A stretch of 64,000 nt of DNA from an archaeon (GTDB lineage: Archaea > Nanobdellota > Nanobdellia > Woesearchaeales > GW2011-AR9). A model generated the notes under the pieces. It ran no database searches. It worked only from the letters and a program-made list of their open reading frames with translations, and was not told where the DNA came from. The stretch lies in assembly GCA_018670085.1 (NCBI GenBank), contig JABHRS010000037.1:28500-92499 (forward strand). Reading direction: 5' to 3'. Both the position numbers and the translations under genes were made by a program. How positions within the stretch are numbered: position 1 is the stretch's first letter; each line of letters starts with the position of its first letter. Below, one piece after another: positions 2,580 to 58,863 of the stretch.

Positions 2580-2645
2580 TAACTCTTAACCAAAAACAGA
2601 AAAATTAATTTTTAGTATATACCAAAAAATTAGTTCCAGACTAAT

Positions 2646-29886: not shown

Positions 29887-30780
29887 TCATTTTTGCACCA
29901 GATAAAACAACTCATTACTGGTTTCGAACTTCTCTACTGTATACTCTAATCTTTTACAAAGCAGTTCAACCCATTTTCTTTGTGGATAACGCATAGGCTT
30001 ACCACTACGTGTAACTGTTGGAAAAGAGATTAAAACAAAACTAGCAGCAACTGCATTCAAAACTTTCTCAGTTTGTTTATGTCCATTTCCTCGATCCAAA
30101 TGATCAGTTAATTTTAGCATTAAAGCCAGATCCACTGATTTTAAAGATCCAAGTAATTTAATATCTTTGGAATTTGTCAAATTCAAAATTTTAGAATTCC
30201 CTTCAAAACCATCATAAAATAAAGCCAATTTAGAAAATAACAATTCCAACAATTCCTTCTCTGAATTATTAATATCAACTGCAGTATAACTCATCCCTTG
30301 TAATTTACTTTTTGTCAAATAAACTAAAGAAAACGGATGTAAACCAGCACCTAAGTCAAGAACAGTTTGCAATTTTGGGATTTTAGATATAATCCATTTA
30401 TAGAAAACTTGATAATCTTCTACCCTTTCAGAGCTTGATGCATGTGCAATCAAAATTTTCTTTGAAACATTCTTCAAATGAGTCAATGAAGCAAGTTCTG
30501 AAAGTTCATCTGCAAAGCGCAGATAATCTAAACTACGATTTCCTACACCAAACATTGAATGTGCGCGTCTAAGTTTTGAGCGAACAGCACTAACTATTCG
30601 TTTAAACTCTTTGCTACGAGGGTTAATCTTTTTAGAGTTCAGATATTTTTTTGCAATCGAATCCCTCATTAAAAAAGCTTTAAACTCAGAAATAGCAAAC
30701 GATCTATCAACGGAGCTTAATTCTTTTTTTATTAAAATAGCATCAACCATCAATTTTTGATTACTAGAAACAGCCACCAT
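29887..30780 (-). CDS. Class I SAM-dependent methyltransferase (possibly RNA methyltransferase)
   Basis: VLDLGAGLHPFSL (motif I GxGxG) followed by AVDIN (motif II acidic residue). Confidence 0.55.
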   Translation of the reverse strand: MVAVSSNQKLMVDAILIKKELSSVDRSFAISEFKAFLMRDSIAKKYLNSKKINPRSKEFKRIVSAVRSKLRRAHSMFGVGNRSLDYLRFADELSELASLTHLKNVSKKILIAHASSSERVEDYQVFYKWIISKIPKLQTVLDLGAGLHPFSLVYLTKSKLQGMSYTAVDINNSEKELLELLFSKLALFYDGFEGNSKILNLTNSKDIKLLGSLKSVDLALMLKLTDHLDRGNGHKQTEKVLNAVAASFVLISFPTVTRSGKPMRYPQRKWVELLCKRLEYTVEKFETSNELFYLVQK

Positions 30781-37464: not shown

Positions 37465-37836
37465 TTACTGCTTCTTTGTAGGGATAGGCCTTGATCTTAC
37501 ACCAGTTCTGGTCTTAGATCTAACGCTTGATCTGTTTACAGTTCCAGAACTTACTGGAGCTCTAACTGGCGAACTTAGCACAGGTCTTAATCTGCCACCA
37601 CCAACTTTCAAATGATCCAACTCCTCAATTTCAGCTTTTTTAATTGACAAAATAGAAGAAGATAGATTTTCAACCAGCTCCAATACTTTTTTCGCTTTAT
37701 TCATTTGTTTCATTAAAAGCATCACAACAACAATTGCTTCAAGTAGCAAGAGCCCAGCTATAATAGAGAGAACAAATACTATTTCAACTAAAGGAACATC
37801 AACACCAAATACTAACATTTCATCCAAACCTCTCAA
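37465..37836 (-). CDS. Small membrane protein with a Ser/Arg-rich tail
   Basis: One long hydrophobic helix, then a basic, low-complexity C-terminus. Confidence 0.4.
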   Translation of the reverse strand: MRGLDEMLVFGVDVPLVEIVFVLSIIAGLLLLEAIVVVMLLMKQMNKAKKVLELVENLSSSILSIKKAEIEELDHLKVGGGRLRPVLSSPVRAPVSSGTVNRSSVRSKTRTGVRSRPIPTKKQ

Positions 37837-37912: not shown

Positions 37913-40900
37913 TCATGCATTTAAATCTTTCCTTAATTCCCCTAGATGATCTTTCATCCCACCTAAAGTATCAAACAATACTGGTCGAACTGGACCAAAA
38001 ACAAAAATAATCAAACATCCCCCAACAATCAATAATAAAAACAGAAATGCAATTTTTGCTTCTCGGTTTGGCAGAGTATCTTGATAAATAATGTAGGCTG
38101 CTTCTTCAGTCTGTTCATAAGCTACACTCACAATTTGAGAAAACGAAATTGCAGCAGTCATATCTGAAACTAATGCACCAGTCAACGAGTTCCCACCTTC
38201 CTCATAATTTTCCAGATCAGTTGATTCAGATTCCAATTCACTAGCTGCTATTTCGGATTCAATAGTATCTTGCAGATCATTTTCTGAGTCCAAATCAAGT
38301 AAAAAAGACTGAGAAGACAATTTACCCCTATCATCAGAGATCACCATATCAACAACATATTTACCACTTGAAAGCTGATCTGGATTATAACCAAACTTCT
38401 GTGCAAATACAAATCCTTCTTGATCAGAATCCACCCCTTCTAATTGAGTCGAAATATCATACGGTCCATAAACATCAGTAAATAAAATTCTTGAATCTGA
38501 TCCAGTCAGTAATGATCCTAAAAATGAAAATTTCCCACCTAAGTTTCCGAAACTACCTTCAGAAACATCTCTTAAACTAATTTCTAAATACTGACCATCG
38601 TAAACAGTGAACCCTGAATACGGATCAAATGAATCAATTAATTCACCTGGAATTCCAGCAATTGCTCCTGTTAAGCCATTAGCACTAACAGAATCAGTTA
38701 CAGACTGGATTAAAGAAGAATCAGTTTTTTCTCTTTCAATAATTACTGCAAAAACATCAATACTATTTCCATCTTCACTAGGTACAACTGAACTTGTAGT
38801 CACAACTTCACGCTTTATTTCTAATTCTTGAGTATAAACAGCTTCATCAGAAAGGTCCCCATCTTCTCCAGCAAAAAATGCCACTGTCACAAAAGTGTTA
38901 CTTGTAGTTGCATAACCACCTGTAACTTCTACTTGAACATTTTCAGTACTTCCAGGTGCAATTACAATTCTTTCAATTGCCCCAAGTGATGCACTAACCA
39001 TATCACTAGACACAGCAGATGAGGAAACTTTTAATGCACTGCCACCACTAGTGGCACCATCATATACTTTTCTTGTGATTACAGGTTTTACATCTTCAAC
39101 TTCTTGTGTTGCAATTGGTTTTAGAACCATTGATTTTTCTAAATCAGTATTTTGAATCGATAAAGTAATTTTTTCTCTTGGCAATTCTGCAACTCTTCTT
39201 GCATCATATGAACTATCTACTACAGCTGCAGTTTTTTGAGAGATATCAGAACTACCAAAATCAGCCTCAGATCCAGATTCAGATCCAGAACTATCACCAG
39301 TAGATGATCCACTTGAAGTACTGCCAGCATCGCCTGCTAAATTAGAACTTTCACTACCAGTATCATCAGTTTCACCTGACACTTCACTTATTTCTCCATC
39401 AGGACCAATAATTGTTCCGATGACAGGTGCATCCACAGGTTCAGAATCAATTAAATTTACTATTAAATTCTCTTTAACTAATTCAGGCGCCAATATTTCA
39501 TCAGCTGGAGGTAACTCAGCATTTATTGGTCCAACTACTTGACCTTCTTGTGTTGGTGCATATGCAACTGACCCATCAGAATCAGTGTTGCCTGAATCAG
39601 CTATATTACTATCAGCATCACTCCCCTCAGTTTCCGAATTTTCAGATTCTGAATTACTCTCTTCTGAAGATTCACTTTCACCACTATTCCCACTACTCCC
39701 ACTACTTCCGCTACCGCTACTTTCACAATCTTTTACTTCAATTGGTTTTCCATTATCTACACCACAAGCATTTGAATCCACACAACTTCTTGCTTGGGTA
39801 CTCCCAGTACATGCTTGCCATGCTCCACAAGACCAACTTGGAGAACAACTAAGTAATGGGAAATAATCCTCTACAGGTTCGGAATCAGTTATAGACACAG
39901 TATATGGAAGCAAAGTATCACCAACACCATCATAACTTACATTATTAGGATAAGATGAACCAGATCCATCATCTAAACCAGTATAGTTTTGCCAATAATT
40001 TCCACCAGTACAATTTCCACTGAGAATATTCAAATAATCATCTGAACAACCATAACTAATATTGTAAGTATTATTCCCTGCTGCCAAAATATTATTTCTA
40101 GTAGCGTTAAATTTATTATTATAAATTGAATTATCAAAACCCCAAGATAAATTTAATCCAGTGACTAAATTCTCAGCAACATTTCCTTCAATAGTACTAC
40201 TGTTCACATCTTCAAGTAAAAAACCATATTCTTCCGCACTAATAATTGACACATTAGTGATATTAACTGAACTTGCATGTCTAATTACAAAAGAATTTTC
40301 AAAGTCATCTACAAATCCATTTTTGATAACTAAACTACTTATATTCCCAATTGAAAAAGCATTTCCAGTATCATCACCGTTTATAGAATAACCTGCAAGG
40401 TCAATTACCAAACTGTTAGTTTCGATATCAAAACAATCTCCAGCAGCGTTAATATCTTCTGTTAAAGTCACACTACTAGTGAGAGTTCCACAACTAAGAT
40501 CAGCATCAGAGACGTTAATAATCACAGTTGCATTAGCATGACTAAGGCTAGTCAAGTTGATAGTTGAATTAACTGCGATGTCATATCCACTTTTTATTCC
40601 TTCAACAAAATGAGGTGTAGCATAATCCCATCCAGTAGAACTGATGGTTCCCTCAGACACAATTTGTCCAAGCACAAAACCATCACTTCCAGTTGTTGCA
40701 CTTAAAACAGACAGATTACTAATATTATAAATGTTAACTGTCGCTGCATTTACAGCTATTCCTGTTGAATTACTAACATTTACATCAACATACCACTGAA
40801 GCAAAATACTCGCATTTGACCCTGGATCAAAAGAGACATTATTTTTATCAAAAGTTACATTTCTAAAAATATGATCCCCTTGTAAACCAGCAACTTCATT

Positions 40901-43900
40901 CTCCCCAGGTGAATTCTTCACAAATGTATCATTCACAAAAGTTGAATTAGAACCATTTTCCAAATATACAATTGTGTTAGCTGTAGAAATTAAAGTGTTA
41001 TTAATGAATTCAGTATGATGTGGTTCATAATTTTCACTACCAAAATGAACTGCATAAAATCCAGAAACAATATCATTTGAATCAAAGATATTCTCATCAC
41101 CAATAATTAAAACCGCAGGATATAGCACAGATAATGAAGTGATATTATTAGTTGTAAAATTACCATCTGATCCTGAAACAACAGTATTTTGAGCAGAGCT
41201 GAGATTATTATCCAGGAATATATTACTCGCACCGACTGTACTTACGTTTACAGCTGTTCCTTCATAAGCAAAAACATCATTTCTATAAAATCTATGGCTA
41301 GAACTAGAACCAACTTGAATAGCATCATTATTTCCAGATGCGATGATAGTGTTAGACTCCAATGTGGCCCCACTGGACCCAGCAAGAAAGGCAACATTTG
41401 CATTTAAACCACCACTACAGTTACAATCAATAATGCTGTTATTAACTACGGTCCCATCACTTCCAATAAAAATCCCATACTCTCCTTGAGTTGTGTTAAT
41501 TGTCACATTGTTTACAAGATTATTAGCTCCAGCAGATCCAAGCTGAATCCCAGAACTAAAATTCAAAATATTTGCAAAATTAATAATTGTGACATTGGAG
41601 TTATTTCCAACACTAATTCCATGCCCACTACTATCACCTTGAATAGAATAACCCTTCCCATTCAGTTCTATATTACTTGCATTAATAGTAAAACAAGTTC
41701 CAGTTGCGTTATTGTTCTGAGTTACATCAAAATCAGCGTTGATGGTAGTACAGTCTGTAGAACTAGAGCTAGTACTATAATTACTAAACCCAGTAACATT
41801 TGCTGACAAAATACCTGAAGACACATCATAACTAATGTTACAAAGTGAAAGATCATTATCACAACGAGTACCATCTTTCAAAAGTTGAGGCGTTTCAGGA
41901 TAAGACAAATTTTCAATAGTAATCTGAATTACTCTAGTTGCATTCAAAGTACTAAGGCTAGTATTCATCTCAAATCCGATATTATTTTGTTCTAAATAAT
42001 GTGAATCACCAAACAGCAAGTTTGTATCTGTAGATAAATTAGTAGAATTAAAGAACAAAATACTTCCATAAAAATTCTCAAATTTCAATGAACTGGTCTC
42101 AGTTAAATCAGTTCTATCATCAATCTGAAAAAAATCATCATTTTCATTTACTGTGATATTTGTGAAGAGATTACTGTTTGAATTAACCTGAAACACAAAT
42201 GATCCATTTCTAATTGAAATCTCGCTAACATTACTATCGGTTATTGATTCTAAAATTAGCTCATCATTTGTGATAGTAAAATTCTTAATTGTGATTAAAG
42301 AAGAACCAGTCATAAAAAAACCATCATTAAAATTATCATAAAGAATTATATCTTCAAAAGTTGTATAATTAGCTCCACCTAAAACATTAATACCTTTCTG
42401 GGAATGATTTACAAAAGTAAGATTATAAAAAGTACTATTTGGAGTAGAAATTTGTATCCCATTTGAATTATTGATAAAGTCAGAGTGAAAAACACTGATA
42501 TTGTTATCACCAACAACATCTGCCATAATTCCTGCTCCTTGCATATCCTTAAACCTAGAAGCTTCAATAAGAGTATTTGTAGCAGAATCCTCCAATTCAA
42601 CTCCACCGTTCCCATTAGTCATGTTTACATAACTCACTGTTGTGTTCTCAGAAGACTCCAACCCAACTGCAACACTAAAACCATCAATCTCCAAATTTTG
42701 AATTACCACATTATCAAAATCGCTCACATTAATTCCAAACCCACTACCATTCCCCGACAAACTAAATTGATTGAACCCATCAATTGTAATACCGCTTGCA
42801 TTGATAGTAAAGCAAGTTCCAACAGTTGTAATTGATTCACTAAATTCATAATCTGCATTTAAAAAAGTACAATCAGCATGCACAACTTCTGCAGTAGTAA
42901 AATTACTAAAACCAGATACATTTGCAAATAATGCAGTTTGGTTATAACTTACATTACAAAAATTAGTATCATCACATCTAACTCCATCTTTGAATAAGCC
43001 AGGAGTGTTTGAGTAAGATAAGTTATCAATCACGATTTGTGATGACACATTCAGATTCAAGTTGCTACCATTAATAGTGATACCAATGTTATTATTCTCA
43101 AAAATAAAAATCAGTCCAGGTTCCAGTTTAGTTGAAACTGTCAAATTAGTTGAACTAGTATTTATTGAACCATATGTTACATTACGATTAACAATATTAT
43201 TTGAATGTTCCAAACCAGTGAGGTCATTAATAGAATGATTTACTTGATTGGTCACAGTTATATCCCGAAGTTCATTTGATTCAGAATCCCCACTCAAAAT
43301 AATCCCAGTATTGAGATATTCTCCTAAATTGATCAGACTATTATTGACAGTATCCAACCTTAGAGTATTATTTGTTACAATATTTTCAGCAAATAAAATA
43401 TTATCTGAATGAAAAATATCTACACCACTAAAATTATGATCAGTAAAAAAATTCGATGAGATATTAGTCGAGTTTGAATCATTCAAGTAAATCCCAAAGG
43501 CACCATTTTCATAAATATTATTGCTGTCAATCACAGAGTTTATAACTTTAATATCAAGACCACTCAAGCTTTGATTAAATACTTTGTTTTCAGAGAGGTT
43601 CATCCCAGTTGCCACATTCTCCACTAGATACATTCCTTTCACATTAGAATGGATCTCATTTCCACTGAATGTGATATTATTCACATCTCCTGTTGAAAAA
43701 ACACCATAGTTTGCATTAATAGAGATACTGTTCATTGAAAAAGTGACAGTATCTATGTCCCCCAGTTCCATCCCTTCATTAAAACTTTCAATTGCACAGT
43801 TTTGAACAGTCACATTCTCAACACTAACAACTGTCAAACCGACATTTGTTTTAGCAGTTGTTCCTGTGATAGGAAAACCATTACAATCCAAAACAAGGTG

Positions 43901-44413
43901 ATCTTCACCAATTGTCAAACCATTTACCCCACTACATTTAGTAATATTATCAGTTGCATTTAATGTACGAGAAACCGTTAAAGTGTCACCGCAGTTACAA
44001 GGACTAACTCCACAATCAACTTGAGCCAATACTCCACCACCATCACCATCACTGGTTCCAGATAAAATATCACTACCACCAACCGCAGCACCAGTTAAAG
44101 AATTTCCAGAATCAGAAGAGAATAAATTAAAAAATTTTAAAACTATAGAACTTGATTCATCAGTAATTTCAGAATCCAAAGAGCTAACAGGATTATTTGG
44201 GTTAATAAGCTCAGTTTCAGTGATCTCAGAGTCCAGAGAATCAACGCCACCATAAGTTCCAGCACTAGTTACAATCGCACCAGTAATTTCTTGATCTAAT
44301 GGTGCACCAACATCAGAAGAGACCAGGATCACAATTCCAAGAATAACTGCAAGTAAACAAAATAATACTGTCCCTAGAACTACTTCTCTTTTAAACCGTT
44401 TTTGAGCACCCAT
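37913..44413 (-). CDS. Giant (2166 aa) cell-surface protein with at least 4 tandem right-handed parallel beta-helix (NosD/pectate-lyase-like) modules, Ser/Gly-rich linkers, an N-terminal signal anchor and a C-terminal TM anchor
   Basis: Repeated module C..TINA..G.CF.I.A..I.LdG.g..I.G....GI.v....v.I.N. Very many N-x-S/T sequons. N-terminal VVLGTVLFCLLAVILGIVILV and C-terminal IAFLFLLLIVGGCLIIFVFGPV hydrophobic segments. Confidence 0.85.
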   Translation of the reverse strand: MGAQKRFKREVVLGTVLFCLLAVILGIVILVSSDVGAPLDQEITGAIVTSAGTYGGVDSLDSEITETELINPNNPVSSLDSEITDESSSIVLKFFNLFSSDSGNSLTGAAVGGSDILSGTSDGDGGGVLAQVDCGVSPCNCGDTLTVSRTLNATDNITKCSGVNGLTIGEDHLVLDCNGFPITGTTAKTNVGLTVVSVENVTVQNCAIESFNEGMELGDIDTVTFSMNSISINANYGVFSTGDVNNITFSGNEIHSNVKGMYLVENVATGMNLSENKVFNQSLSGLDIKVINSVIDSNNIYENGAFGIYLNDSNSTNISSNFFTDHNFSGVDIFHSDNILFAENIVTNNTLRLDTVNNSLINLGEYLNTGIILSGDSESNELRDITVTNQVNHSINDLTGLEHSNNIVNRNVTYGSINTSSTNLTVSTKLEPGLIFIFENNNIGITINGSNLNLNVSSQIVIDNLSYSNTPGLFKDGVRCDDTNFCNVSYNQTALFANVSGFSNFTTAEVVHADCTFLNADYEFSESITTVGTCFTINASGITIDGFNQFSLSGNGSGFGINVSDFDNVVIQNLEIDGFSVAVGLESSENTTVSYVNMTNGNGGVELEDSATNTLIEASRFKDMQGAGIMADVVGDNNISVFHSDFINNSNGIQISTPNSTFYNLTFVNHSQKGINVLGGANYTTFEDIILYDNFNDGFFMTGSSLITIKNFTITNDELILESITDSNVSEISIRNGSFVFQVNSNSNLFTNITVNENDDFFQIDDRTDLTETSSLKFENFYGSILFFNSTNLSTDTNLLFGDSHYLEQNNIGFEMNTSLSTLNATRVIQITIENLSYPETPQLLKDGTRCDNDLSLCNISYDVSSGILSANVTGFSNYSTSSSSTDCTTINADFDVTQNNNATGTCFTINASNIELNGKGYSIQGDSSGHGISVGNNSNVTIINFANILNFSSGIQLGSAGANNLVNNVTINTTQGEYGIFIGSDGTVVNNSIIDCNCSGGLNANVAFLAGSSGATLESNTIIASGNNDAIQVGSSSSHRFYRNDVFAYEGTAVNVSTVGASNIFLDNNLSSAQNTVVSGSDGNFTTNNITSLSVLYPAVLIIGDENIFDSNDIVSGFYAVHFGSENYEPHHTEFINNTLISTANTIVYLENGSNSTFVNDTFVKNSPGENEVAGLQGDHIFRNVTFDKNNVSFDPGSNASILLQWYVDVNVSNSTGIAVNAATVNIYNISNLSVLSATTGSDGFVLGQIVSEGTISSTGWDYATPHFVEGIKSGYDIAVNSTINLTSLSHANATVIINVSDADLSCGTLTSSVTLTEDINAAGDCFDIETNSLVIDLAGYSINGDDTGNAFSIGNISSLVIKNGFVDDFENSFVIRHASSVNITNVSIISAEEYGFLLEDVNSSTIEGNVAENLVTGLNLSWGFDNSIYNNKFNATRNNILAAGNNTYNISYGCSDDYLNILSGNCTGGNYWQNYTGLDDGSGSSYPNNVSYDGVGDTLLPYTVSITDSEPVEDYFPLLSCSPSWSCGAWQACTGSTQARSCVDSNACGVDNGKPIEVKDCESSGSGSSGSSGNSGESESSEESNSESENSETEGSDADSNIADSGNTDSDGSVAYAPTQEGQVVGPINAELPPADEILAPELVKENLIVNLIDSEPVDAPVIGTIIGPDGEISEVSGETDDTGSESSNLAGDAGSTSSGSSTGDSSGSESGSEADFGSSDISQKTAAVVDSSYDARRVAELPREKITLSIQNTDLEKSMVLKPIATQEVEDVKPVITRKVYDGATSGGSALKVSSSAVSSDMVSASLGAIERIVIAPGSTENVQVEVTGGYATTSNTFVTVAFFAGEDGDLSDEAVYTQELEIKREVVTTSSVVPSEDGNSIDVFAVIIEREKTDSSLIQSVTDSVSANGLTGAIAGIPGELIDSFDPYSGFTVYDGQYLEISLRDVSEGSFGNLGGKFSFLGSLLTGSDSRILFTDVYGPYDISTQLEGVDSDQEGFVFAQKFGYNPDQLSSGKYVVDMVISDDRGKLSSQSFLLDLDSENDLQDTIESEIAASELESESTDLENYEEGGNSLTGALVSDMTAAISFSQIVSVAYEQTEEAAYIIYQDTLPNREAKIAFLFLLLIVGGCLIIFVFGPVRPVLFDTLGGMKDHLGELRKDLNA

Positions 44414-44555
44414 CCCCAGTTAGATTTATACTCTATTCCTTTATAAATATTTGTAAGTCTAAAAATCTGCATTTTTTTAGATAGATAGTTATAAAAACAA
44501 GATATAAAAAATAAAAATAAAAAAGAGTTATTAATTAGTAGAATCCTTAATTTGT

Positions 44556-46627: not shown

Positions 46628-47362
46628 TTAATTAGCATACAATTCCAAAACATCAGCATTAACACTGCTCTCCATAAGAACATCAACTATTTTTTTCATA
46701 GCAGTACCCAACGCTTTATACGTTACTGGATCACCTCTATCAATCCCAACAATTTTTACGGCCTCTTCAGTCATAACAACTGCTGCAGCACCAAGTTCTA
46801 CAAAGGATTGAACATAAATATTCTCAGTTGGAAAAATTTCAGTTACAGCATATTTTATTGCACCATCAGCGATCGCTGCTTCGAGACCATCAGATTCAGC
46901 TTTTGTAATCAAAAGGTTAACCACATTATCTCTTTTCACAGCATAAGAAACAATATCATCAATTGCAGCATTCATATTACTAAGGTCAAAATTTTCGGGA
47001 ATAGCAATAACAGTAGTAAATCTATCAAAATGTGCTCTGAGATAACTTCCACTTTGAGTCCAGGTCCTTTCAACTTCCTTAATTCTCTTTGGAAGGTCAG
47101 ACAATTCAGACAAGCTCCGTTCGAATGCAGCATATGTAGTTGCAGATTCAGCTACCCCAATTCTTCCATGAATAACATTTTCCCTAAGTTCAGTTCGAAA
47201 TTCAGTATCCACCCGCAGAATTTCTTTCTCTAATGAAGACCCATCTTTGTAAAGCCCCCTAGTAATATTTCCAAAATAATCGGCAATAGCCATTCTAATC
47301 ATATGTTCAGTTTCCATTTTTGTATCTCCATCGGATTTATCGTTATAACATGCCAAAAACAC
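46628..47362 (-). CDS. Hypothetical protein, GC-elevated
   Basis: ORF only. Confidence 0.45.
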   Translation of the reverse strand: MFLACYNDKSDGDTKMETEHMIRMAIADYFGNITRGLYKDGSSLEKEILRVDTEFRTELRENVIHGRIGVAESATTYAAFERSLSELSDLPKRIKEVERTWTQSGSYLRAHFDRFTTVIAIPENFDLSNMNAAIDDIVSYAVKRDNVVNLLITKAESDGLEAAIADGAIKYAVTEIFPTENIYVQSFVELGAAAVVMTEEAVKIVGIDRGDPVTYKALGTAMKKIVDVLMESSVNADVLELYAN

Positions 47363-47587
47363 CCATATTTATAAAGTTGTCGTAAAATAACTACGGCAAA
47401 GTAGTGTATTCAGAGAAATGTGACAAATTGACAATATCTGAACTTTTATCAAAAATCGGTCCTAAAAAATATAATTAAAAATCTAAAACATATTAATCAG
47501 TTATTAGAACAAAAAAATCCAAACAGAAATAACAAAACAATTAGAATAATAAAAAAAAAATAAAAAAAATAAAAAAATCAAGAAGCT

Positions 47588-47914
47588 TTATTTCCCTTCA
47601 ATAATCTCATACTCTTTAACAATCACCCACAAGAACAGAAGTAATAACACTGCTCCAGCTAGCATATACCAAGCTCCAGCAACCAAGGAATCGTTGGATA
47701 AAGATTGATACATCCCAAAACCCATTACTGCAAATCCAAGCCATAGAAATTTATCAAGTACCAATTTCATAATTTCAAATTCTTGAGCTTCACTCATTTT
47801 CCGCTTACCTGAACGAGAAGATCTAGATTTTGAAGCTGCAACTGATTTTGCTGTCACCCTTCTAACTTTTGTTCGACTTCGACTCACTTTTCTTTTTCTT
47901 ACCATCACCATCAC
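47588..47914 (-). CDS. Small membrane protein with an Arg/Lys/Ser-rich N-terminus
   Basis: Basic N-terminal tail and two hydrophobic helices. First gene downstream of the pilin-like gene. Confidence 0.4.
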   Translation of the reverse strand: MMVMVRKRKVSRSRTKVRRVTAKSVAASKSRSSRSGKRKMSEAQEFEIMKLVLDKFLWLGFAVMGFGMYQSLSNDSLVAGAWYMLAGAVLLLLFLWVIVKEYEIIEGK

Positions 47915-47956
47915 CTGTATAATTTATTAAAAAAATAAAAAACCAATCAAAAAAAC

Positions 47957-48598
47957 CTATGAGGTTTTAATGAAAAAGGTTGTACTATCATATTCTTCCC
48001 AACTTGTACCATCATCTTCGCTTTCTTCAAGGACTGCCTTATACAAGTATGTACCTTGTTTACTCGGTGCTACAATTGAAAATGAGATCACCTGTGTTTC
48101 TCCAGCTGGAAGTGATTGTGCTGAGTTATCCCAAAGTATTTCAGCTTCAGCTTCGCCAAACTCCAACTTTTCACCTGGAGTAAAATCCACAAAACCATCA
48201 CCATCATTAACTTGGAACCCTAATCTAAAATGTTTAGACTGATCATCAACATTTTTTATTCCAACAGCCAGTACATCTTCTTCTTTAGTTTCATAAACTA
48301 AGTCATTACTTGGAAAACTAAGTCGATTATTACTTCGTCTTAAATCTTCTTGAATTTGTTCTGCGATTTGTGTTTGAACGGAACTTGATGTATCAGTAAT
48401 TTGCTCGAATTGACCCTTAACAAAACCTAAACCTAAACCTAAAACAACGAATGCAATTACAACTATTACAATTGCTTCAATAGAAAGATTCAATGAAGCC
48501 TTTTTCCCACTAGAAAAAATACTAAAAAAACCCTGATTTTCCCCTGCTTTTTTTCTAAACCATCCTTTAACCATTTGACCACCTCTTTGTATACACAC
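47957..48598 (-). CDS. Archaeal type IV pilin-like protein with a class III (prepilin) signal peptide
   Basis: KKASLNLSIEAIVIVVIAFVVLGLGLG resembles the archaeal pilin N-terminus ([KR][GA] then a hydrophobic helix with SLEAAIVLIAFVV). Adjacent to the prepilin peptidase gene. Confidence 0.55.
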   Translation of the reverse strand: MCIQRGGQMVKGWFRKKAGENQGFFSIFSSGKKASLNLSIEAIVIVVIAFVVLGLGLGFVKGQFEQITDTSSSVQTQIAEQIQEDLRRSNNRLSFPSNDLVYETKEEDVLAVGIKNVDDQSKHFRLGFQVNDGDGFVDFTPGEKLEFGEAEAEILWDNSAQSLPAGETQVISFSIVAPSKQGTYLYKAVLEESEDDGTSWEEYDSTTFFIKTS

Positions 48599-48662
48599 AT
48601 TATATCATGAGTGTTCTGATATTTACTATTAATTATTACTAATAAAATATAAACATTCTTGC

Positions 48663-49535
48663 CTATAAAAAGCTTTGCAATATTGGCATCCAATTTTCTT
48701 GAGTTAGAAGCAGAATATAACCAAACAAAAATGCTGGAACAAATGGTACACCTTCTTTAATCACTACGTTTTTAACAATTCCAGTTCCGTACCATTTTAA
48801 TAATTTTTGAAGGTCACTTCTCTCAATTGTTTTAGGATAAATTGTTGCCCCTTTTTCACCCCTAACTTTTTCAACCAACCAATCACCTTCAACCAAATCA
48901 AGAATATTTCTTTTTTGAACAAAACATGATCTTTCAACTGCTACAATCCCAACAAATAACAAATAACTTAGGATCACAATTAATCCAAGTGATGAAAAAA
49001 TCCAATGAACTCTCATTCCTAAAAAAATACTTACAACAAAAACTCCGATTGCAGCTTTAAAATATCCACTTGACTCATAAAATAATTGTCTAAATTCATG
49101 TATGAAAGCACCTCTGTGTTCAATTGCCAAACCGATACTCCAAAGAAGAGAATAAGCAGCTCCGGAAAAAAGAAGTAACAAGATAAAAGCTAACAAATCA
49201 AATCCGATTATACCAAGTTCAGTTGATAATGATTTAAACAAAAAATCAACGCCAATAACCGCACCCATTCCGATTAAAAGTTTACTATCAGCTCCCCCCC
49301 ATTGTCCAGTGTAATACAATAATAAAGCAATTATAAAACAAATTACAAGTCCAATTAATCCACTAATGATTAATTCTACACCTAAAGTGAAGGAGAATAA
49401 CACACGTAAAATTAAAGCTGCAATTACCAAACCCCAACTAAGCAGATCAGCAACTTCGCGATGTTTAATATCAGAAATTGAACTAGCTATTAAGATAAAA
49501 AAAACCACAACTGACATCACAGAACTAAAAACCAT
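48663..49535 (-). CDS. Archaeal prepilin/preflagellin peptidase (A24 family, FlaK/PibD-like)
   Basis: SISDIKHREVAD (DxKxREIPD first catalytic Asp box) and QWGGADSKLLIG (GGADxKL second Asp box). Polytopic membrane protein. Confidence 0.7.
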   Translation of the reverse strand: MVFSSVMSVVVFFILIASSISDIKHREVADLLSWGLVIAALILRVLFSFTLGVELIISGLIGLVICFIIALLLYYTGQWGGADSKLLIGMGAVIGVDFLFKSLSTELGIIGFDLLAFILLLLFSGAAYSLLWSIGLAIEHRGAFIHEFRQLFYESSGYFKAAIGVFVVSIFLGMRVHWIFSSLGLIVILSYLLFVGIVAVERSCFVQKRNILDLVEGDWLVEKVRGEKGATIYPKTIERSDLQKLLKWYGTGIVKNVVIKEGVPFVPAFLFGYILLLTQENWMPILQSFL

Positions 49536-49540
49536 TTATT

Positions 49541-50545
49541 TCACTTCTTACGAATTCTTGGCGGAGGTGGCAAAGGTAACTCTCCAATCACTTCATCTTG
49601 AATTTTTGATTCTTCAGCAGCAGATAAACCACCTTGTGATAATTTTGATTCCAAATTAGACATGTGTTCACCTGATTCAGCAGTACTTTCAACTGTTGAA
49701 ACATTAGCTGCACCCATCATCATAGTATGTTTAATTTCCATGTTATTATCTTGAACCTCAGTTCCAGAAAGTCCTACAACACCCTCTTGATCTAAAGAAA
49801 TTTTTTCATCAGGTGAGTCAGGCAAGTCAACAATGTTTTGAACATTCAATTCTTCATGTACATCAGGATACTTATGTTGAATATCTTGGATTTTCATTTC
49901 AAGTTCTGTAATTTGAGTTTGGATTTTCTTTAATTGAATTGGATTCAAATTAGAAGTTTCAGCTTTCAATTCTAATTCATGTTTGACACTTCTAATTCGG
50001 TGAAATAAGATTGAAGCCCGACGAACTTTTAATGAATTTTCAGAATCAACTGATTCAGATGTTGGTTTAGAAACTAATTTCCTAGAAGAGTTACGCTGTT
50101 TAACATCTGTGTTAGGCTTAACTTGATTTAATTCTTTCAATAAAGATTGCGAAAGTGCTACATCTTTTTTTAGTTCAGATTTTGCAAGTAACTCTGACAA
50201 GATGTGATAAAGTTTAGTGACTTTTTCTTGTAGCTCTTTATCTTCAGCTGCGTTTATCCTATTTTTTAATGAAGTGATTTGCCTTTTCAAAGAACTAACT
50301 TTTTGAGACTCTTTTGCCTCATTTTTCAACAGTTTATCCTCGAGGACAAAAATATGTTCTAATTTTTTTTCCAAATGAACAATCTCTTTTCTAAGACTAA
50401 GTCTTGGCACATTTTTTTGAGTAGAGAGATATTTAATTTCATCAATTTTTTGAGAAATTTCTTTTTTATTGATTTTTTGCCTCATACCATCTTGAGCTGA
50501 TGCTAATGAGTGTAACAATTTTTTTGCTCTAAATGCTGTAGCCAC
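49541..50545 (-). CDS. Coiled-coil protein with a proline-rich C-terminus
   Basis: Heptad-like charged repeats. C-terminal LPLPPPPRIRKK. Confidence 0.5.
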   Translation of the reverse strand: MATAFRAKKLLHSLASAQDGMRQKINKKEISQKIDEIKYLSTQKNVPRLSLRKEIVHLEKKLEHIFVLEDKLLKNEAKESQKVSSLKRQITSLKNRINAAEDKELQEKVTKLYHILSELLAKSELKKDVALSQSLLKELNQVKPNTDVKQRNSSRKLVSKPTSESVDSENSLKVRRASILFHRIRSVKHELELKAETSNLNPIQLKKIQTQITELEMKIQDIQHKYPDVHEELNVQNIVDLPDSPDEKISLDQEGVVGLSGTEVQDNNMEIKHTMMMGAANVSTVESTAESGEHMSNLESKLSQGGLSAAEESKIQDEVIGELPLPPPPRIRKK

Positions 50546-50639
50546 TTTTTTACCTTCTTATTGAGATTAATTTTTTTGATTCTGTATATTTTGATTCTAT
50601 ATATCAAATAAAAATTATAATTCTAAAATAATTAAAAAA

Positions 50640-51218
50640 TTAAAAAAATCCATGTCTTTTTTTACTTTTTTCCAATCCAGGCGGTGGAGGTGGAATTCCT
50701 CCAATACCAGCAACACTTGCTGAACCCATAGTAGGAAGTGGTGGAACCATTGAAGCACCAACACCTGCACTCATCATATTAGGAGGAGCAGAAAAAGAAC
50801 CACCCTGCATATTACTTGGCATACCTGTGTTTGCTGAAGGGATACTCTGCACTGCAGCAACAGGTTTACTTGAATTTGTAAATTGTTCAATCTTATCTGA
50901 AATAGCAATCATTCCTCTTGCAATAGTTTCGTTTTGAGTTACAACGGCATCAATTCTTTCATTCAAATGTTTAATTGATTTGAAGATATCTTCATCTGCT
51001 GTTGTGTCTAATGCTTTTTTGAATACATCATTCAATTCATGAATTGAATCTTTCAAACTTTCAATCTCCAAGATAAGTTCATTTGTTTTGGTATCTGGTT
51101 CTTGTAATTTCTTTTTTAATGCCTCAACATCATATTTGAGATCCTCAAGTAAACTGTGAGGAAGAATTTCATAATCTTGCTTTGTCATCCCTGCCACCTC
51201 TTTGTAATCGATAATCAC
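50640..51218 (-). CDS. Coiled-coil protein with a Gly/Pro/Met-rich C-terminus
   Basis: N-terminal coiled coil. C-terminal ...PPLPTMGSASVAGIGGIPPPPPGLEKSKKRHGFF. Same architecture as 49541..50545. Confidence 0.5.
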   Translation of the reverse strand: MIIDYKEVAGMTKQDYEILPHSLLEDLKYDVEALKKKLQEPDTKTNELILEIESLKDSIHELNDVFKKALDTTADEDIFKSIKHLNERIDAVVTQNETIARGMIAISDKIEQFTNSSKPVAAVQSIPSANTGMPSNMQGGSFSAPPNMMSAGVGASMVPPLPTMGSASVAGIGGIPPPPPGLEKSKKRHGFF

Positions 51219-52346: not shown

Positions 52347-52961
52347 ATGAAAATCACTAAAAATTTCGCAATTCTCTATGGAATCCTACTAGGAGATGGT
52401 TGTTTATCAAATACTTCCAAAGCAAGATATATTTGTATTACTTGTGACAGATATTCTGATAAAGAGTTGTTCAAAAAATTAACACCTATTATTGAAAAAA
52501 TAAGAGGTAAAAAAATTAAAATAAAAGATAGAGGAACACATGGAACAATTGAGATTAAATTCTCAGATAAAAAGATGTTTGAAACATTTAAAAAAATTGG
52601 TTTTCCAGTTGGGAAAAAAGGAGTAAATCTTTTCATCCCGAAAATTTTTAAAAATCATTTGAAGGAAGTTATTCAAGGTCATTTTGCAACGGATGGGTGT
52701 GTTGTAATCACAAACAATAATGGAATTAGATATCCAAGAATTGAATTTTCAAGTATCTCTAAAGGTCTTTTAGAACAAATAAACAAATATCTCATAAACA
52801 GTAATATTAGAAGTAAAATATATCTTTCAAAGAGATACACTAATGGATGGAATAATTTGTACAGAATTCAGATAAATGGAAAGAAACAACTATGTATTTT
52901 TGAAGAGAAAATAGGATTTTTCAACCCAAAACACAAAAAAATAGCAGATTCATTCAAATAA
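52347..52961 (+). CDS. LAGLIDADG homing endonuclease (double-motif, free-standing)
   Basis: ILYGILLGDGCL (first LAGLIDADG) and IQGHFATDGCV (second), separated by about 100 aa. Typical basic DNA-binding surface. Confidence 0.8.
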   Translation: MKITKNFAILYGILLGDGCLSNTSKARYICITCDRYSDKELFKKLTPIIEKIRGKKIKIKDRGTHGTIEIKFSDKKMFETFKKIGFPVGKKGVNLFIPKIFKNHLKEVIQGHFATDGCVVITNNNGIRYPRIEFSSISKGLLEQINKYLINSNIRSKIYLSKRYTNGWNNLYRIQINGKKQLCIFEEKIGFFNPKHKKIADSFK

Positions 52962-53934: not shown

Positions 53935-54567
53935 ATGGTTATGTATCCCAATTATGTACTAGGAGAAACAACTCTCTCATTGCTTCAAATGCACATAGCA
54001 CTTTATGAGCAAGGCAAAGATCAATTTAAATCAGAACAACCCATGATCCTCGCAGCTGTTGAAGCAACTATGCCAAGAGTAGAATTAGAGTTAGGGTTAT
54101 TTTATGGAAAAGTGGATCCAATAAATTCTGCAATTAATCAAGAAAGAGAGATCCCCCCATATTCACCTGGAGAAGCAATCGTTTTAGTACTGAAAAAACC
54201 AAATCAGAGTTTACATGCAGTTCAGTTAAAATTTTGTGGATCAAATGAGAGAGTGAATTGGAAAGAGTGGAGAATTGAAGGAATAGCTGAAGGAGAATTC
54301 ACTGAATCTCATTTTGCACCATATGGCTCCGCTAAAATTGAAGATATAACAAACTCCAATGCTAAATTTTACAGTAATTCTCCAAAAGAGGTTGGCAGAC
54401 GCGAAACTTCCATAACAGATCATCCAATAGAGATGATTATTCAAGAGGTACAAGAATTAGAGAGATCAGCGAGGTACAGATATGTTCATCAGTTAGAATT
54501 TCCAAAAAACTTGAGCCCTTCGGAAAAATCAGTACTCGCAAGCTTAAATAAAGCACAATATTTATAA
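53935..54567 (+). CDS. Hypothetical protein
   Basis: ORF only. Confidence 0.45.
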   Translation: MVMYPNYVLGETTLSLLQMHIALYEQGKDQFKSEQPMILAAVEATMPRVELELGLFYGKVDPINSAINQEREIPPYSPGEAIVLVLKKPNQSLHAVQLKFCGSNERVNWKEWRIEGIAEGEFTESHFAPYGSAKIEDITNSNAKFYSNSPKEVGRRETSITDHPIEMIIQEVQELERSARYRYVHQLEFPKNLSPSEKSVLASLNKAQYL

Positions 54568-54590
54568 AACAATTCTAGAACTTCAATAAT

Positions 54591-54604
54591 ACGCCAACGT
54601 GGCA
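54591..54604 (+). repeat. 14-bp direct repeat (acgccaacgtggca) duplicating nt -2..+12 of tRNA-Ser, 67 bp upstream of the gene
   Basis: Exact match to 54658..54671. Followed by a perfect AT hairpin agaaaaat-cta-atttttct. Confidence 0.75.
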
Positions 54605-54659
54605 TACTTAGAAAAATCTAATTTTTCTGGTCGCCACTTAAGTGTTCATAAAAATTCAC

Positions 54660-54742
54660 GCCAACGTGGCACAATCTGGTACTGCGCAAGACTGGAAATC
54701 TTGTTTCCTCTGGATATCCCGGTTCAAATCCGGGCGTTGGCG
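54660..54742 (+). tRNA. tRNA-Ser (anticodon GGA), class II
   Basis: Acceptor GCCAACG/CGUUGGC, discriminator G. U8. 3-bp D-stem. Anticodon stem CAAGA/UCUUG with loop C-U-GGA-A-A. 14-nt variable arm. T-arm CCCGG-UUCAAAU-CCGGG. 83 nt. Confidence 0.85.
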
Positions 54743-55040
54743 CTTTTTCTTTTACCTAGCGCCGCACCTTAGAAATAGGGCATATTTGAGTATTGGACTT
54801 GTACTAACTTAAAAGATCCTATTCTAGGCTCTTTCAACAAGTGTAAGTCCTAATGGCCAAAGTAATCACTTATGGAATTCTATAAGCAGTTTCTTTGTTT
54901 TTGGAGTAAATAAGCCTCTGAACTATATAATATTTTCTTGGTAACATGGCCATTAGTGGTCCAGGAGGAATAAATACTCTTTTTCCCCATATTAGATCTG
55001 AACAATTCATCTGGTTCAAAATAATTTAGGGGGAAATACA

Positions 55041-55286
55041 ATGGAAGCATTGGATATGAAAGTATTACAAGAAGATAGAAGTGAACATATTGAGTACTGC
55101 CTTAGACAAATTGGATCTTTAGTTAATTCTGGATTTGTAATGTCGGCAGAACCGTATGTAGATCACTTGTGTGGTAAAGAACTTGGATTGTATGCTAGTG
55201 AATTTGAAACGTTGTGTTTCAATTTTGCCATTGAGCACAGTTTACGCACTGGTGAGATCAGCCCATATCTTTGGGGTGCACAATGA
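55041..55286 (+). CDS. Hypothetical soluble protein, first gene of an ATGA-coupled operon
   Basis: SD-like tagggggaa upstream. Stop overlaps the next start (ATGA). Confidence 0.5.
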   Translation: MEALDMKVLQEDRSEHIEYCLRQIGSLVNSGFVMSAEPYVDHLCGKELGLYASEFETLCFNFAIEHSLRTGEISPYLWGAQ

Positions 55287-55429
55287 AGTGTCTTGTCTGT
55301 AAAGGGGATGCCAATCAAGAACTTTGCGACACCTGTGCACAAATTCTGCTTGACAAATATCCTAACGAATCCATTTGGGATATCATCAAGCGTTACGAAG
55401 AATATTGCTATGGAGGTGAAGAAGAATGA
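55283..55429 (+). CDS. Small zinc-ribbon protein (48 aa, not in the supplied ORF track)
   Basis: MKCLVCKGDANQELCDTCAQ... (CxxC-x8-CxxC). Start and stop both in ATGA overlaps with neighbouring genes. Confidence 0.45.
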   Translation: MKCLVCKGDANQELCDTCAQILLDKYPNESIWDIIKRYEEYCYGGEEE

Positions 55430-55689
55430 TAGTAGGAGATTGGAAAGCAATACTTGCTACACTGTGGGTTGCATTGTGTCTTGTCTTTATTGTGTATATG
55501 ATAGAAGCGGCAAGTTATGATGTGGCTCTTGGTTTTATCGTAGGAGTAGCAGTTGTGTCAGTTTTCTTTTTGATACAACCAAACAAGTGCCGTGTTACTC
55601 AAGAAGAAGCTCCAGAAATTCTAGAAGAAGGAGATGACAGTTTACTAACACGGGTGTTTACACCTGGTTTTGTGGAGGTGAGACAATGA
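55426..55689 (+). CDS. Small two-TM membrane protein
   Basis: Two hydrophobic helices. ATGA-coupled on both sides. Confidence 0.5.
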   Translation: MIVGDWKAILATLWVALCLVFIVYMIEAASYDVALGFIVGVAVVSVFFLIQPNKCRVTQEEAPEILEEGDDSLLTRVFTPGFVEVRQ

Positions 55690-56012
55690 AACAAATATTT
55701 TCAGTCTTATTTTTGTTATTGCTGATTGCACCAATGGCATTTGCAGAAATAGACTTTGACGGAGAAGAACTCAGTACAGAAGAAGAAGCATTGCTTGATG
55801 AGATCATGGATCCAATATTCACAATTTACAATGCTCTGAAATATGTGGCAACTGTAATTGGTGTAATGGTTCTTGTCTTTGCAGGAGTTAGTTTAATGAC
55901 AGCTTCAGAACCTGCAAAAAAAGATCGAGCAAAGAATATGCTAATGGGAGTAGTTATTGGATTAACTATTATCTGGACAGCACCATTAATTGTGGAGTTA
56001 GTGTTCACATGA
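55686..56012 (+). CDS. VirB2/TrbC/CedA1-like pilin-type protein (signal peptide plus two TM helices)
   Basis: Cleavable signal MKQIFSVLFLLLLIAPMAFA, acidic segment, then two hydrophobic helices separated by a short K/R loop (SEPAKKDRAKNM). 108 aa. Confidence 0.5.
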   Translation: MKQIFSVLFLLLLIAPMAFAEIDFDGEELSTEEEALLDEIMDPIFTIYNALKYVATVIGVMVLVFAGVSLMTASEPAKKDRAKNMLMGVVIGLTIIWTAPLIVELVFT

Positions 56013-58045: not shown

Positions 58046-58103
58046 GTTAGCTAGGTGCATACTAGTTAGTCTTTAGAAGTGGTGAGGAAGGTAACGCTTC
58101 CTT

Positions 58104-58427
58104 TTATTTTCTTGGTTTACCTGAATTCACATGAAAATGTAAGTGTTTAGAATCTTGATAGTTTCCTAAATTCGTAAGAACTCTGCATTGTCCGTGTTCC
58201 TCTGTCACTTCTTTAGATACTCTTTGTAACACATCCATAATTTCTATGATTAATGATCTATCAGTCAATGTGAGTAAAGAATTAATATGCTTCTTTGGTA
58301 CAACAACAATATGTACTGGCCAAAATGGCTTCGTGTGATAATAAGCAAGCACATTTTCAGTTTCTAGTACCTTCTTAACAGGAGTCTTCCCACTGAAAAC
58401 TTCATCACAATAAAAGTCGTCTGTCAT
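58104..58427 (-). CDS. HIT-family protein
   Basis: HIVVVPKKHINSLL and HLHFHV (histidine triad). Confidence 0.75.
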   Translation of the reverse strand: MTDDFYCDEVFSGKTPVKKVLETENVLAYYHTKPFWPVHIVVVPKKHINSLLTLTDRSLIIEIMDVLQRVSKEVTEEHGQCRVLTNLGNYQDSKHLHFHVNSGKPRK

Positions 58428-58430
58428 CTT

Positions 58431-58826
58431 CTACCTTTTTGAAATAACTAGTTCTTTAAATTTAGTTGTTTCATCAACCTTCCTTTCAAACCTTAAATCC
58501 CCAATTTCTCCAATGATAATTTCTGCGGTTGTGTAAATTATACATCCTTCTTTGAGATGTCCACCAAAGGTGTTACCATCTTTATCAGAGATAGAAAGAT
58601 GAAGATGTACTCCATCTGGTGAAAGAGTTCCCACAAGACTTACAATCTCAAACTTCTCTACAAATTCCTTTTTAATGTTTTCATCAGCTAATCGAAGTGT
58701 TGCTTTTGATAAAGAACCAACACAAGTAAGTATAACTCCTGCTTGAATTTTATTCTCATTGCAAAATTTGATTACTCTTTTTTTAAGATCTTGACCAGGA
58801 TGCAGCCGTATAGCATATGTTCTCAT
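58431..58826 (-). CDS. DUF296/PPC-domain (COG1661-like) predicted DNA-binding protein
   Basis: ILTCVGSLSKATLRL...GVHLHLSISDKDGNTFGGHL pattern typical of DUF296. Confidence 0.5.
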   Translation of the reverse strand: MRTYAIRLHPGQDLKKRVIKFCNENKIQAGVILTCVGSLSKATLRLADENIKKEFVEKFEIVSLVGTLSPDGVHLHLSISDKDGNTFGGHLKEGCIIYTTAEIIIGEIGDLRFERKVDETTKFKELVISKR

Positions 58827-58863
58827 GGTACCTCAATGTTTACTTCAATTATAAATTCTTCTC

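Follow-up and report, generated by a model that had tools for sequence, protein, structure and literature searches.

A giant multi-module beta-helix protein with an adhesin-like architecture, probably anchored at the surface of a Woesearchaeota-type archaeon

Attachment to other cells is the presumed way of life of DPANN archaea, and the contact molecules are almost entirely uncharacterised. Giant beta-helix adhesin-like proteins are a known kind, described in methanogens and in one cultivated DPANN archaeon. Those of methanogens, the ALPs, are Asn/Thr-rich and consist of beta-helix repeats followed by beta-sandwich repeats, with an N-terminal transmembrane helix or one at each end (PMC11532034). 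In Nanobdella aerobiophila, the pectin-lyase-like proteins MJ1_0451, MJ1_0701 and MJ1_0776 have 908–1320 amino acids (aa) and 36–52 N-glycosylation sequons, and have been proposed to act on the glycosylated wall of the host (bioRxiv 10.1101/2023.10.27.564410). Here we describe a giant gene in 64,000 nucleotides of DNA from a Woesearchaeales archaeon (contig JABHRS010000037.1, positions 28,500 to 92,499; GC ~33%). We refer to this whole 64-kb stretch as the window and number positions from its first letter. The gene encodes a protein of 2166 aa, in which four beta-helix modules lie between two hydrophobic helices. We read the product, with moderate confidence, as a membrane-tethered, adhesin-like, glycan-binding surface protein of a Woesearchaeota-type DPANN archaeon. 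The gene and the parts of its product, from the N to the C terminus, are as follows.

37913..44413, minus strand: the giant gene, with an ATG start and 2166 codons plus stop (6501 nt)
44315..44413, minus strand: aa 1–33, basic MGAQKRFKRE and a 23-residue hydrophobic helix; a predicted Sec signal peptide or N-terminal signal anchor, from hydropathy and likeness to leaders in relatives
44015..44314, minus strand: aa 34–133, an acidic, Ser-rich, low-complexity linker with two [IL]TGA..[VI] copies and a duplication of SLDSEIT
42878..44014, minus strand: aa 134–512, beta-helix module A (NosD 4.2e-12, Beta_helix 7.4e-10), with a Cys-rich entry (C134, C139, C141, C160, C177, C206) and the C-terminal cap LFKDGVRCDDTNFCN...FSNFT
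41759..42877, minus strand: aa 513–885, beta-helix module B (Beta_helix 2.7e-12, AlphaFold2, Foldseek), with the entry C515...GTCFTI and the cap LLKDGTRCDNDLSLCN...FSNYS
40499..41758, minus strand: aa 886–1305, beta-helix module C (Beta_helix 5.1e-4, 20.1 bits), with the entry CTTINA...GTCFTI and a probable small beta-sandwich at about aa 1212–1246 (a very weak CarboxypepD_reg-like match, E = 0.18)
39854..40498, minus strand: aa 1306–1520, NosD-type beta-helix module D (NosD 9.6e-11, ortholog alignment), with the entry CGTLTS...GDCFDI and the end GGNYW...DGVGDTLLPY
39722..39853, minus strand: aa 1521–1564, a 6-Cys mini-domain, C-x5-C-x5-C-x8-C-x5-C-x12-C
39179..39721, minus strand: aa 1565–1745, an acidic Ser/Gly/Glu/Asp-rich stalk, predicted disordered, with zero sequons
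38738..39178, minus strand: aa 1746–1892, a first beta-strand-rich block, a putative beta-sandwich with few relatives and no matching Pfam family
38594..38737, minus strand: aa 1893–1940, a low-confidence loop with a third motif copy, NGLTGAIAG, at aa 1914
38294..38593, minus strand: aa 1941–2040, a second beta-rich block with the signature F.D.YGPY...EGFVFAQ.F.Y.P
38066..38293, minus strand: aa 2041–2116, an acidic segment, a fourth motif copy and a juxtamembrane helix (SVAYEQTEEAAYIIYQDTLP)
37916..38065, minus strand: a C-terminal transmembrane helix (aa 2117–2147) and tail (aa 2148–2166), from hydropathy and homolog alignments

Domain prediction bore out the multi-module parallel beta-helix that the original prediction had seen in the sequence. 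The whole protein scored 60.3 bits on both the Beta_helix (PF13229, cutoff 25.9) and NosD (PF05048, cutoff 23.6) models of Pfam, with PF13229 matching in six stretches; TIGR03804 reached 16.3 bits, under its cutoff of 19.45. When segments A (aa 134–512), B (aa 510–885), C (aa 885–1305) and D (aa 1305–1525) were scanned separately against Pfam, all four matched beta-helix models. A and B passed the Beta_helix cutoff alone, segment C scored 20.1 bits, under the gathering score, and module D covered the C-terminal two thirds of the NosD model (positions 83–212 of 212). The modules are paralogous, with 27–42% aa identity: A and B align over their full length at 30–40%, while for B, C and D it is the entries that align, at 28–42%. 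They are old paralogs. The entry motif said to be common to all four modules held for three of them, the literal G.CF.I being found in B (at 532), C (at 905) and D (at 1325) and being degenerate in A; what all four have in common is a C-x18-C entry pair (C141/C160, C515/C534, C888/C907 and C1308/C1327). Modules A and B share a highly conserved terminal cap, NLSY..TP.L(L/F)KDG.RCD....CN.SY......L.ANV.GFSN(Y/F) or, in short form, LLKDGxRCD...FSNYS, with which modules of homologs also close. Across 10 aligned modules, the invariant residues were Cys, Asn, Leu and the cap.

To this alignment-based evidence we added a structural model of module B, obtained with AlphaFold2 (AF2) on the 10-sequence module alignment. 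The model was an all-beta solenoid of short, regular strands with a mean predicted local distance difference test score (pLDDT) of 69, exceeding 85 in the first 120 residues and poor in an insert at 259–316. A Foldseek search of the PDB with this model gave 35 matches at E <= 1e-3, essentially all of them right-handed beta-helices that bind or cut glycans. The top folds were the Sf6, HK620 and P22 tailspikes, an alginate epimerase/lyase and a Klebsiella phage depolymerase, and further matches included DFA-IIIase, inulin lyases and a GH87 glucanase. A sequence search of the PDB with the whole protein gave no match at E <= 1. The modelling supports a right-handed parallel beta-helix fold.

The open reading frame (ORF) is real and intact. 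At least 20 contigs, built from independent samples with different assemblers (ENA, Logan and NCBI), carry the code for exactly this 2166-aa protein. It is identical to the NCBI entries MBT4446934.1 and MBT6762863.1, named 'hypothetical protein [archaeon]', and the JGI name for the identical sequence is 'parallel beta-helix repeat protein'. When the DNA of the gene was compared in seven contigs, five were identical, one encoded G162W and one had a single synonymous change, and the length of 6501 nt was constant in all seven copies, which came from different samples. Direct DNA repeats within the gene do not exceed 46 nt, the longest having 76% identity, and its tandem repeats are negligible. 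A modular, repetitive build with low-complexity linkers could invite mis-assembly, a collapsed repeat region or a pseudogene taken for one ORF, and two independent ENA contigs (NODE_5538 and NODE_5320) have a low coverage of about 4–5.5x. However, multi-contig identity, constant length and the shortness of the DNA repeats exclude collapse, frameshift and pseudogene, and comparably long intact ORFs are found in orthologs and paralogs, leaving a vanishingly small chance that the copy is an artefact. The interrupted frame or repeat collapse against which the original prediction was to be checked was not found, and the gene is, as had been claimed, the largest of the window (the next longest ORFs have 1048 and 1035 aa). 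The prediction that its repeats would make it prone to recombination and size variation found no support within the population, where the modules are dissimilar (27–42% aa identity, and no DNA repeat beyond the 46-nt one) and the seven gene copies compared are uniform in length. On the longer timescale, the number and order of modules do differ among orthologs and paralogs. Recent internal duplication and recombination substrates were ruled out by the DNA repeat search inside the gene.

Several features point to a protein exposed at the cell surface, as had been proposed. Hydrophobic segments lie near both termini (aa 11–33 and 2117–2147), where anchors had been expected, and the N terminus follows the positive-inside pattern. 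Between the two helices are 26 cysteines, an even number that is consistent with an oxidised ectodomain. The long Ser/Gly/Glu linkers noticed before were recovered as Ser/Gly/Glu/Asp stretches at aa 34–133 and 1565–1745. The spacing of the 6-Cys mini-domain is identical in an ortholog (L004, described below), and a Pfam scan of this segment gave no match at E <= 1, so that a TSP1-like identity is not claimed. The juxtamembrane helix SVAYEQTEEAAYIIYQDTLP is conserved and amphipathic, and the 19-residue tail reads GPVRPV..DT..G.K.......KDLNA.

Two routes of sorting were considered and set aside. For PGF-CTERM, PEF-CTERM and LPXTG sorting, the NCBIfam CTERM and LPXTG models for archaeosortase and sortase signals gave no match at E <= 1, and the sequence before the transmembrane helix (...YQDTLPNREAK) has no PGF, PEF or LPXTG, the closest LTG motif lying 40 residues upstream of the helix. 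A class III (prepilin) signal peptide was considered in view of an A24 peptidase gene at a distance of 4 kb and of the K-K/R-G that precedes the hydrophobic stretch in several relatives; it was not adopted because no [KR][GA] stands directly before the helix of the giant protein.

The ectodomain is also rich in N-glycosylation sequons. The dozens reported earlier came to 85 NxS/T sites, every one of them within aa 100–1500. Shuffling of aa 134–1520 gave an expectation of 40.8 +/- 5.2 (z = 8.5), and a count of 43 was obtained there for the reversed motif, [ST]xN. Over the 552 residues of aa 1565–2116, no sequon was found against 4.4 expected (P about 0.005). This is the pattern to be expected if the distal region is glycosylated and the proximal stalk is not.

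To place the protein in a family, we gathered relatives by means of back-translated cap motifs among species-representative genomes. This yielded 55 related loci, almost all labelled Candidatus Woesearchaeota, Nanoarchaeia, Micrarchaeota or Aenigmatarchaeota or carrying generic labels of metagenome-assembled genomes (MAGs), 'archaeon' or 'uncultured Methanosarcinales'. Several genomes carry two or three family loci. The family ORFs are giant, reaching more than 2400 aa inside clipped loci, and have 3–8 sequons per 100 aa. Of 10 homologs found for the giant protein, none bears an ALP name, and the best of those with a named source is from a Candidatus Woesearchaeota MAG; together with the archaeal-type L11 gene of the window (described below), this homolog places the organism among the DPANN archaea. 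One Woesearchaeota MAG encodes tandem paralogs of 3084 and 2313 aa (L002; GCA_018303375.1, JAGVYG010000005.1, 754-16939). As a separate observation, HEPN/nucleotidyltransferase pairs resembling toxin-antitoxin systems lie on either side of this tandem.

Two orthologs were informative. One (L003) is colinear with aa 1–959 at 40% identity. The other (L004; JABHSG010000004.1, 1681-7164) is a positional ortholog of 1827 aa with a different module set. Its upstream CxxCxxCC protein is 58.5% identical to that of the window and its downstream small membrane protein is 56% identical, over the first 41 aa, whereas the giant protein itself is 29–32% identical in alignable parts. The family is thus taxonomically restricted, and the giant protein diverges much faster than the genes that flank it. 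From the alignments, the blueprint is conserved (leader, capped beta-helix modules, NosD-type last module, 6-Cys domain, acidic stalk and YGPY pair), and sequence, module number and even the anchor change fast, as would be expected of a surface-exposed interaction protein. Such rapid evolution relative to neighbours is what host-interaction proteins display.

The C-terminal region is rare. An exhaustive HMMER search of 1.84 billion representative proteins with the last 445 residues found 11 proteins at E <= 1e-3, mostly fragments. In the two closest fragments (P0011 and P0012), the juxtamembrane helix, transmembrane helix and tail are 47–56% identical and end in GP.RPV..DT..G.K.......KDLNA. 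The strongest-conserved signature of the region is F.(D/E)(L/V)YGPY....EGFVFAQ.F.Y(D/N)P. An AF2 model showed two beta-rich blocks followed by helices, and Foldseek matched it to tandem immunoglobulin-like domains of adhesins and biofilm scaffold proteins at TM-scores of 0.13–0.19. Big-type Pfam domains gave no match at E <= 1 in the segment scans. On the strength of the model, the two blocks are probably beta-sandwich stalk domains of a rare, lineage-specific type.

These results suggest how the protein could work. The basic and hydrophobic leader would direct export through Sec, and the C-terminal transmembrane helix would hold the protein in the membrane, its short conserved tail reaching into the cytoplasm. 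The helix at the N terminus may likewise be retained in the membrane if it is left uncleaved. Some 1390 residues would form four consecutive right-handed parallel beta-helix rods, with modules A and B each closed by a small cap domain that would be disulfide-bonded. After the rods would come a 6-Cys knot, an acidic disordered stalk of about 180 residues and two membrane-adjacent beta-sandwich-like domains, with the stalk and the beta-sandwich domains serving as a spacer. The beta-helix part, with its 85 sequons, would probably be heavily N-glycosylated and the membrane-proximal stalk bare. The long lateral grooves of the beta-helices may be binding sites for polymers with repeating units, the likeliest being glycans from the envelope of a partner or host cell or from the extracellular matrix, and such binding would tether a small, metabolically limited cell to its partner. 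In this the protein would resemble methanogen ALPs and beta-helix adhesins.

A short motif recurs in the linkers of the protein and raises a different possibility for how the chain is handled. The motif, [IL]TG.[AVIL][VIA], is present in four copies.

about 44270-44287, within the giant gene (minus strand): EITGAIV, aa 43
about 44081-44098, within the giant gene (minus strand): NSLTGAAVG, aa 106
about 38657-38674, within the giant gene (minus strand): NGLTGAIAG, aa 1914
about 38168-38185, within the giant gene (minus strand): NSLTGALVS, aa 2077

All four copies lie in linkers or in loops of low AF2 confidence, and the motif forms a conserved island inside the otherwise variable linkers of C-terminal homologs. 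The other 57 ORFs of the window contain no copy (0.58 expected), and the long ORFs of the family contain 29 against 5.6 expected. The form [IL]TGA[AV][VI]G occurs family-wide, in loci L003–L057; of the 31 giant ORFs whose N terminus is complete, 19 have it 3–45 residues past the N-terminal transmembrane helix, against 2 of 57 small transmembrane-bearing ORFs, one of these two copies being inside the helix. A literature search for the motif strings returned chance matches alone, and the motif appears to be undescribed. A leader profile combining the transmembrane helix and the motif, run against a set of 5.8 billion proteins, found three tiny fragments, the profile being too short to inform.

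Four accounts of the protein compete once the integrity of the ORF is granted. The main rival of an adhesin-like, glycan-binding role is that of an anchored extracellular polysaccharide depolymerase, in which one or more modules would act as lyase or hydrolase on polysaccharides of the host envelope or the environment, to breach the host wall or to feed a sugar-fermenting cell; we consider it unlikely. In its favour, the top folds are endoglycosidase tailspikes, alginate epimerase/lyase, DFA-IIIase and inulin lyases, GH87 glucanase and phage depolymerases; NosD/CASH-type domains are common among sugar hydrolases (Pfam); a phosphoketolase and an acetate kinase encoded in the window fit sugar fermentation; and host-wall degradation has been proposed for the Nanobdella pectin-lyase-like proteins (bioRxiv 10.1101/2023.10.27.564410). 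However, CAZy-type Pfam families (Pec_lyase/Pec_lyase_C, Pectate_lyase_3 and Glyco_hydro_28) gave no match at E <= 1 with the whole protein or its segments, and no Asp, Glu, Lys or Arg was invariant in the helix body across the 10 aligned modules, an argument that is weak in that paralogous modules need not share a site and the accuracy of the model is too low for an inspection of the grooves. The fold matches are themselves biased towards enzymes, as most solved beta-helices are enzymes, and have TM-scores of only 0.2–0.43. An S-layer lattice protein or S-layer anchor, one of the roles offered by the original prediction, is very improbable. This is the largest gene of the window, rich in sequons and with a C-terminal transmembrane helix and stalk as in some archaeal S-layer proteins, and beta-helix S-layer proteins are known in bacteria; but the S-layer proteins of DPANN archaea are predicted to be MSTP-like beta-sandwich tiles and not beta-helices (bioRxiv 10.1101/2024.05.28.596244), MSTP/DUF1608-like and other S-layer models of Pfam and NCBIfam gave no match at E <= 1, genomes carry multiple divergent paralogs, and the L004 ortholog differs in module set and anchoring, which is atypical of a lattice protein. 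The recurring motif suggests a further account, in which the chain is a precursor cut at [IL]TGA[AV][VI]G by a dedicated processing or sorting enzyme into separate surface pieces, namely a beta-helix 'head' that is set free, the stalk and a stub left in the membrane. Its concentration in this protein and this family, its constant position in linkers and loops, its conservation in variable surroundings and its placement after the transmembrane helix all speak for such a step, but no candidate enzyme was found, the motif is short, and the first copy, with small residues at -1 and -3, is perhaps just a signal-peptidase region. We therefore give this account little credence. Put more broadly, that the motif is the recognition site of a DPANN-specific processing or sorting step, with the chain cut or covalently handled at four linker sites, is a speculative idea of similarly low standing. 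The N-terminal copy could be a conserved signal-peptidase region, which would leave the internal copies unexplained.

The adhesin-like, glycan-binding reading has its own difficulties. The best-matching solved beta-helices of module B are enzymes, and their TM-scores are low (0.2–0.43), so that the matches support the general beta-helix fold and nothing finer. The AF2 model of the C-terminal region has low confidence (pLDDT 51). The L004 ortholog ends directly after its second beta-rich (YGPY) block, without the C-terminal transmembrane helix and tail; the mode of anchoring is therefore not uniform in the family, and only the N-terminal helix is available for it in L004. Part of the sequon excess may be a by-product of the beta-helix repeat consensus, since certain of the NxT sites coincide with structural columns that the aligned modules conserve. 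All of these points weigh against our reading. Even so, the adhesin or host-interaction role, the other option of the original prediction, emerges as the best account of a multi-module beta-helix build combined with surface topology, and it is possible that one module also cleaves glycans in the manner of a phage tailspike. On this adhesin-like reading, the protein is a concrete, well-delimited candidate for an attachment molecule, with a conserved blueprint and 55 related loci, and the module definitions and linker motif should be useful for annotating such proteins and for planning experiments on binding and processing.

The giant gene is surrounded by genes for ribosomal protein L11, a histidine phosphatase, the CxxCxxCC protein, MsrAB and uncharacterised ORFs. 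Two further features adjoin it directly.

37465..37818, minus strand: a 117-aa single-pass membrane protein, downstream, 95 nt after the giant gene
44440..44447, minus strand: a TATA-box-like element, TTTATAAA, 27–34 nt upstream of the ATG, read from the sequence

The 117-aa protein, which is syntenic in L004, is possibly co-transcribed with the giant gene, and TTTATAAA is a possible archaeal promoter for it. The archaeal-type L11 gene (36629-37333, plus strand, 234 aa) scored 198.9 bits on NF002232; the model covers residues 1–160, and the remaining 74 or so residues form a C-terminal extension that weakly matches an 'L11/unknown domain fusion' model. An A24 prepilin-peptidase homolog (48663-49535; PF01478, 2.2e-9) lies amid small ORFs in 46628-51218 (minus strand) that have no Pfam matches, two of them with one transmembrane-like segment; this region, at a distance of 4 kb from the giant gene, is a possible locus for a type IV pilus or archaellum-like structure. 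Targeting by a diversity-generating retroelement was considered and rejected, as general Pfam/NCBIfam scans found no reverse transcriptase among about 50 window ORFs.

Elsewhere in the window, a gene set resembling conjugation or type IV secretion systems (T4SS) occupies 55686-61971 (plus strand). It comprises a TrbC/VirB2-type pilin (55686-56012; PF18895, 5.7e-11; PF04956, 1.2e-7), a 678-aa polytopic membrane protein with about nine hydrophobic segments and no Pfam match (56009-58045), whose likeness to VirB6 is one of position alone, and a VirB4-like ATPase (58864-61971; NF045971, 323.6 bits against a cutoff of 325). This T4SS-like gene content resembles that of the archaeal Ced/Ted DNA-transfer systems. 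Just upstream is the sole tRNA gene of the window, tRNA-Ser(GGA) (54660-54743), coinciding with a rise in GC to 0.374 (against about 0.33) at 54000-56000; this region may be an integration site for mobile elements. A free-standing LAGLIDADG homing-endonuclease-like ORF (52347-52961, plus strand; PF14528, 6.9e-17) is not obviously within an intron or intein. A homolog of FmrO-type rRNA methyltransferases (29887-30780, minus strand; PF07091, 8.9e-16) belongs to a family known from aminoglycoside-resistance 16S rRNA methylases. At 162-3797 (plus strand), the phosphoketolase gene (NF003616, 948.7 bits) adjoins that for acetate kinase (PF00871, 1.9e-72); as judged from these matches, the pair amounts to a compact heterofermentative module for turning sugar into acetate, in an archaeon with a small genome.

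Compared with known systems, the giant protein has partial counterparts in several. NosD (PF05048) is a periplasmic accessory protein of nitrous-oxide reductase maturation, and modules A and D match its model, including the C-terminal end. However, there are no nosZ, nosF or nosY neighbours, and the giant protein is about five times the size of NosD (about 400-450 aa), with four modules and a surface anchor; the match reflects a common CASH/beta-helix fold and not NosD function. Module B finds its closest structural counterparts in phage tailspikes and depolymerases (Sf6, HK620, P22 and Klebsiella phage K64-1 S2-4; Foldseek E-values from 6e-5 to 1e-3), with which it shares a right-handed beta-helix fold and, by prediction, the recognition of glycans. 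By contrast with these trimeric spikes, the protein has four helices in tandem and a membrane anchor, with 7–11% identity to them and no catalytic residues identified, and its setting is not that of a virion or prophage, since it is flanked by the L11 and MsrAB housekeeping genes and its chromosomal synteny is kept in another species. Bacterial beta-helix adhesins (filamentous haemagglutinin/TpsA and the autotransporter passengers Fap2 and Pmp, among others) are likewise long, repeat-rich, fast-evolving rods that project a binding surface. No sequence homology with these giant adhesins was detected, and they use type V secretion across an outer membrane, as opposed to Sec and transmembrane helices in a single-membrane archaeon.

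The archaeal counterparts are closer. The Nanobdella proteins, compared here by description, also come from a DPANN archaeon of the episymbiont type and combine a beta-helix with immunoglobulin-like folds, dozens of sequons and a proposed interaction with the host surface; they have one beta-helix, whereas the giant protein has four in 2166 aa. The ALPs ('Asn/Thr-rich large proteins') of Methanobrevibacter smithii and Methanosphaera stadtmanae are also archaeal, large, present as many paralogs and presumed to act in adhesion. In sequence, the relationship detected between them and the giant protein is limited to the generic Pfam Beta_helix and NosD models, and the latter has no Big or ABD Pfam matches; the ALP features used in this comparison are those described in PMC11532034. 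In architecture it is ALP-like, being rich in Asn, Ser and Thr (N 10.3%, S 13%, T 8.1%), with four right-handed beta-helix modules in its N-terminal part, probable beta-sandwich domains after them and transmembrane anchors. It is set apart by its DPANN lineage and by elements of its own, namely the LLKDGxRCD...FSNYS cap, the 6-Cys mini-domain, the long acidic stalk and, towards the C terminus, a pair of orphan domains.

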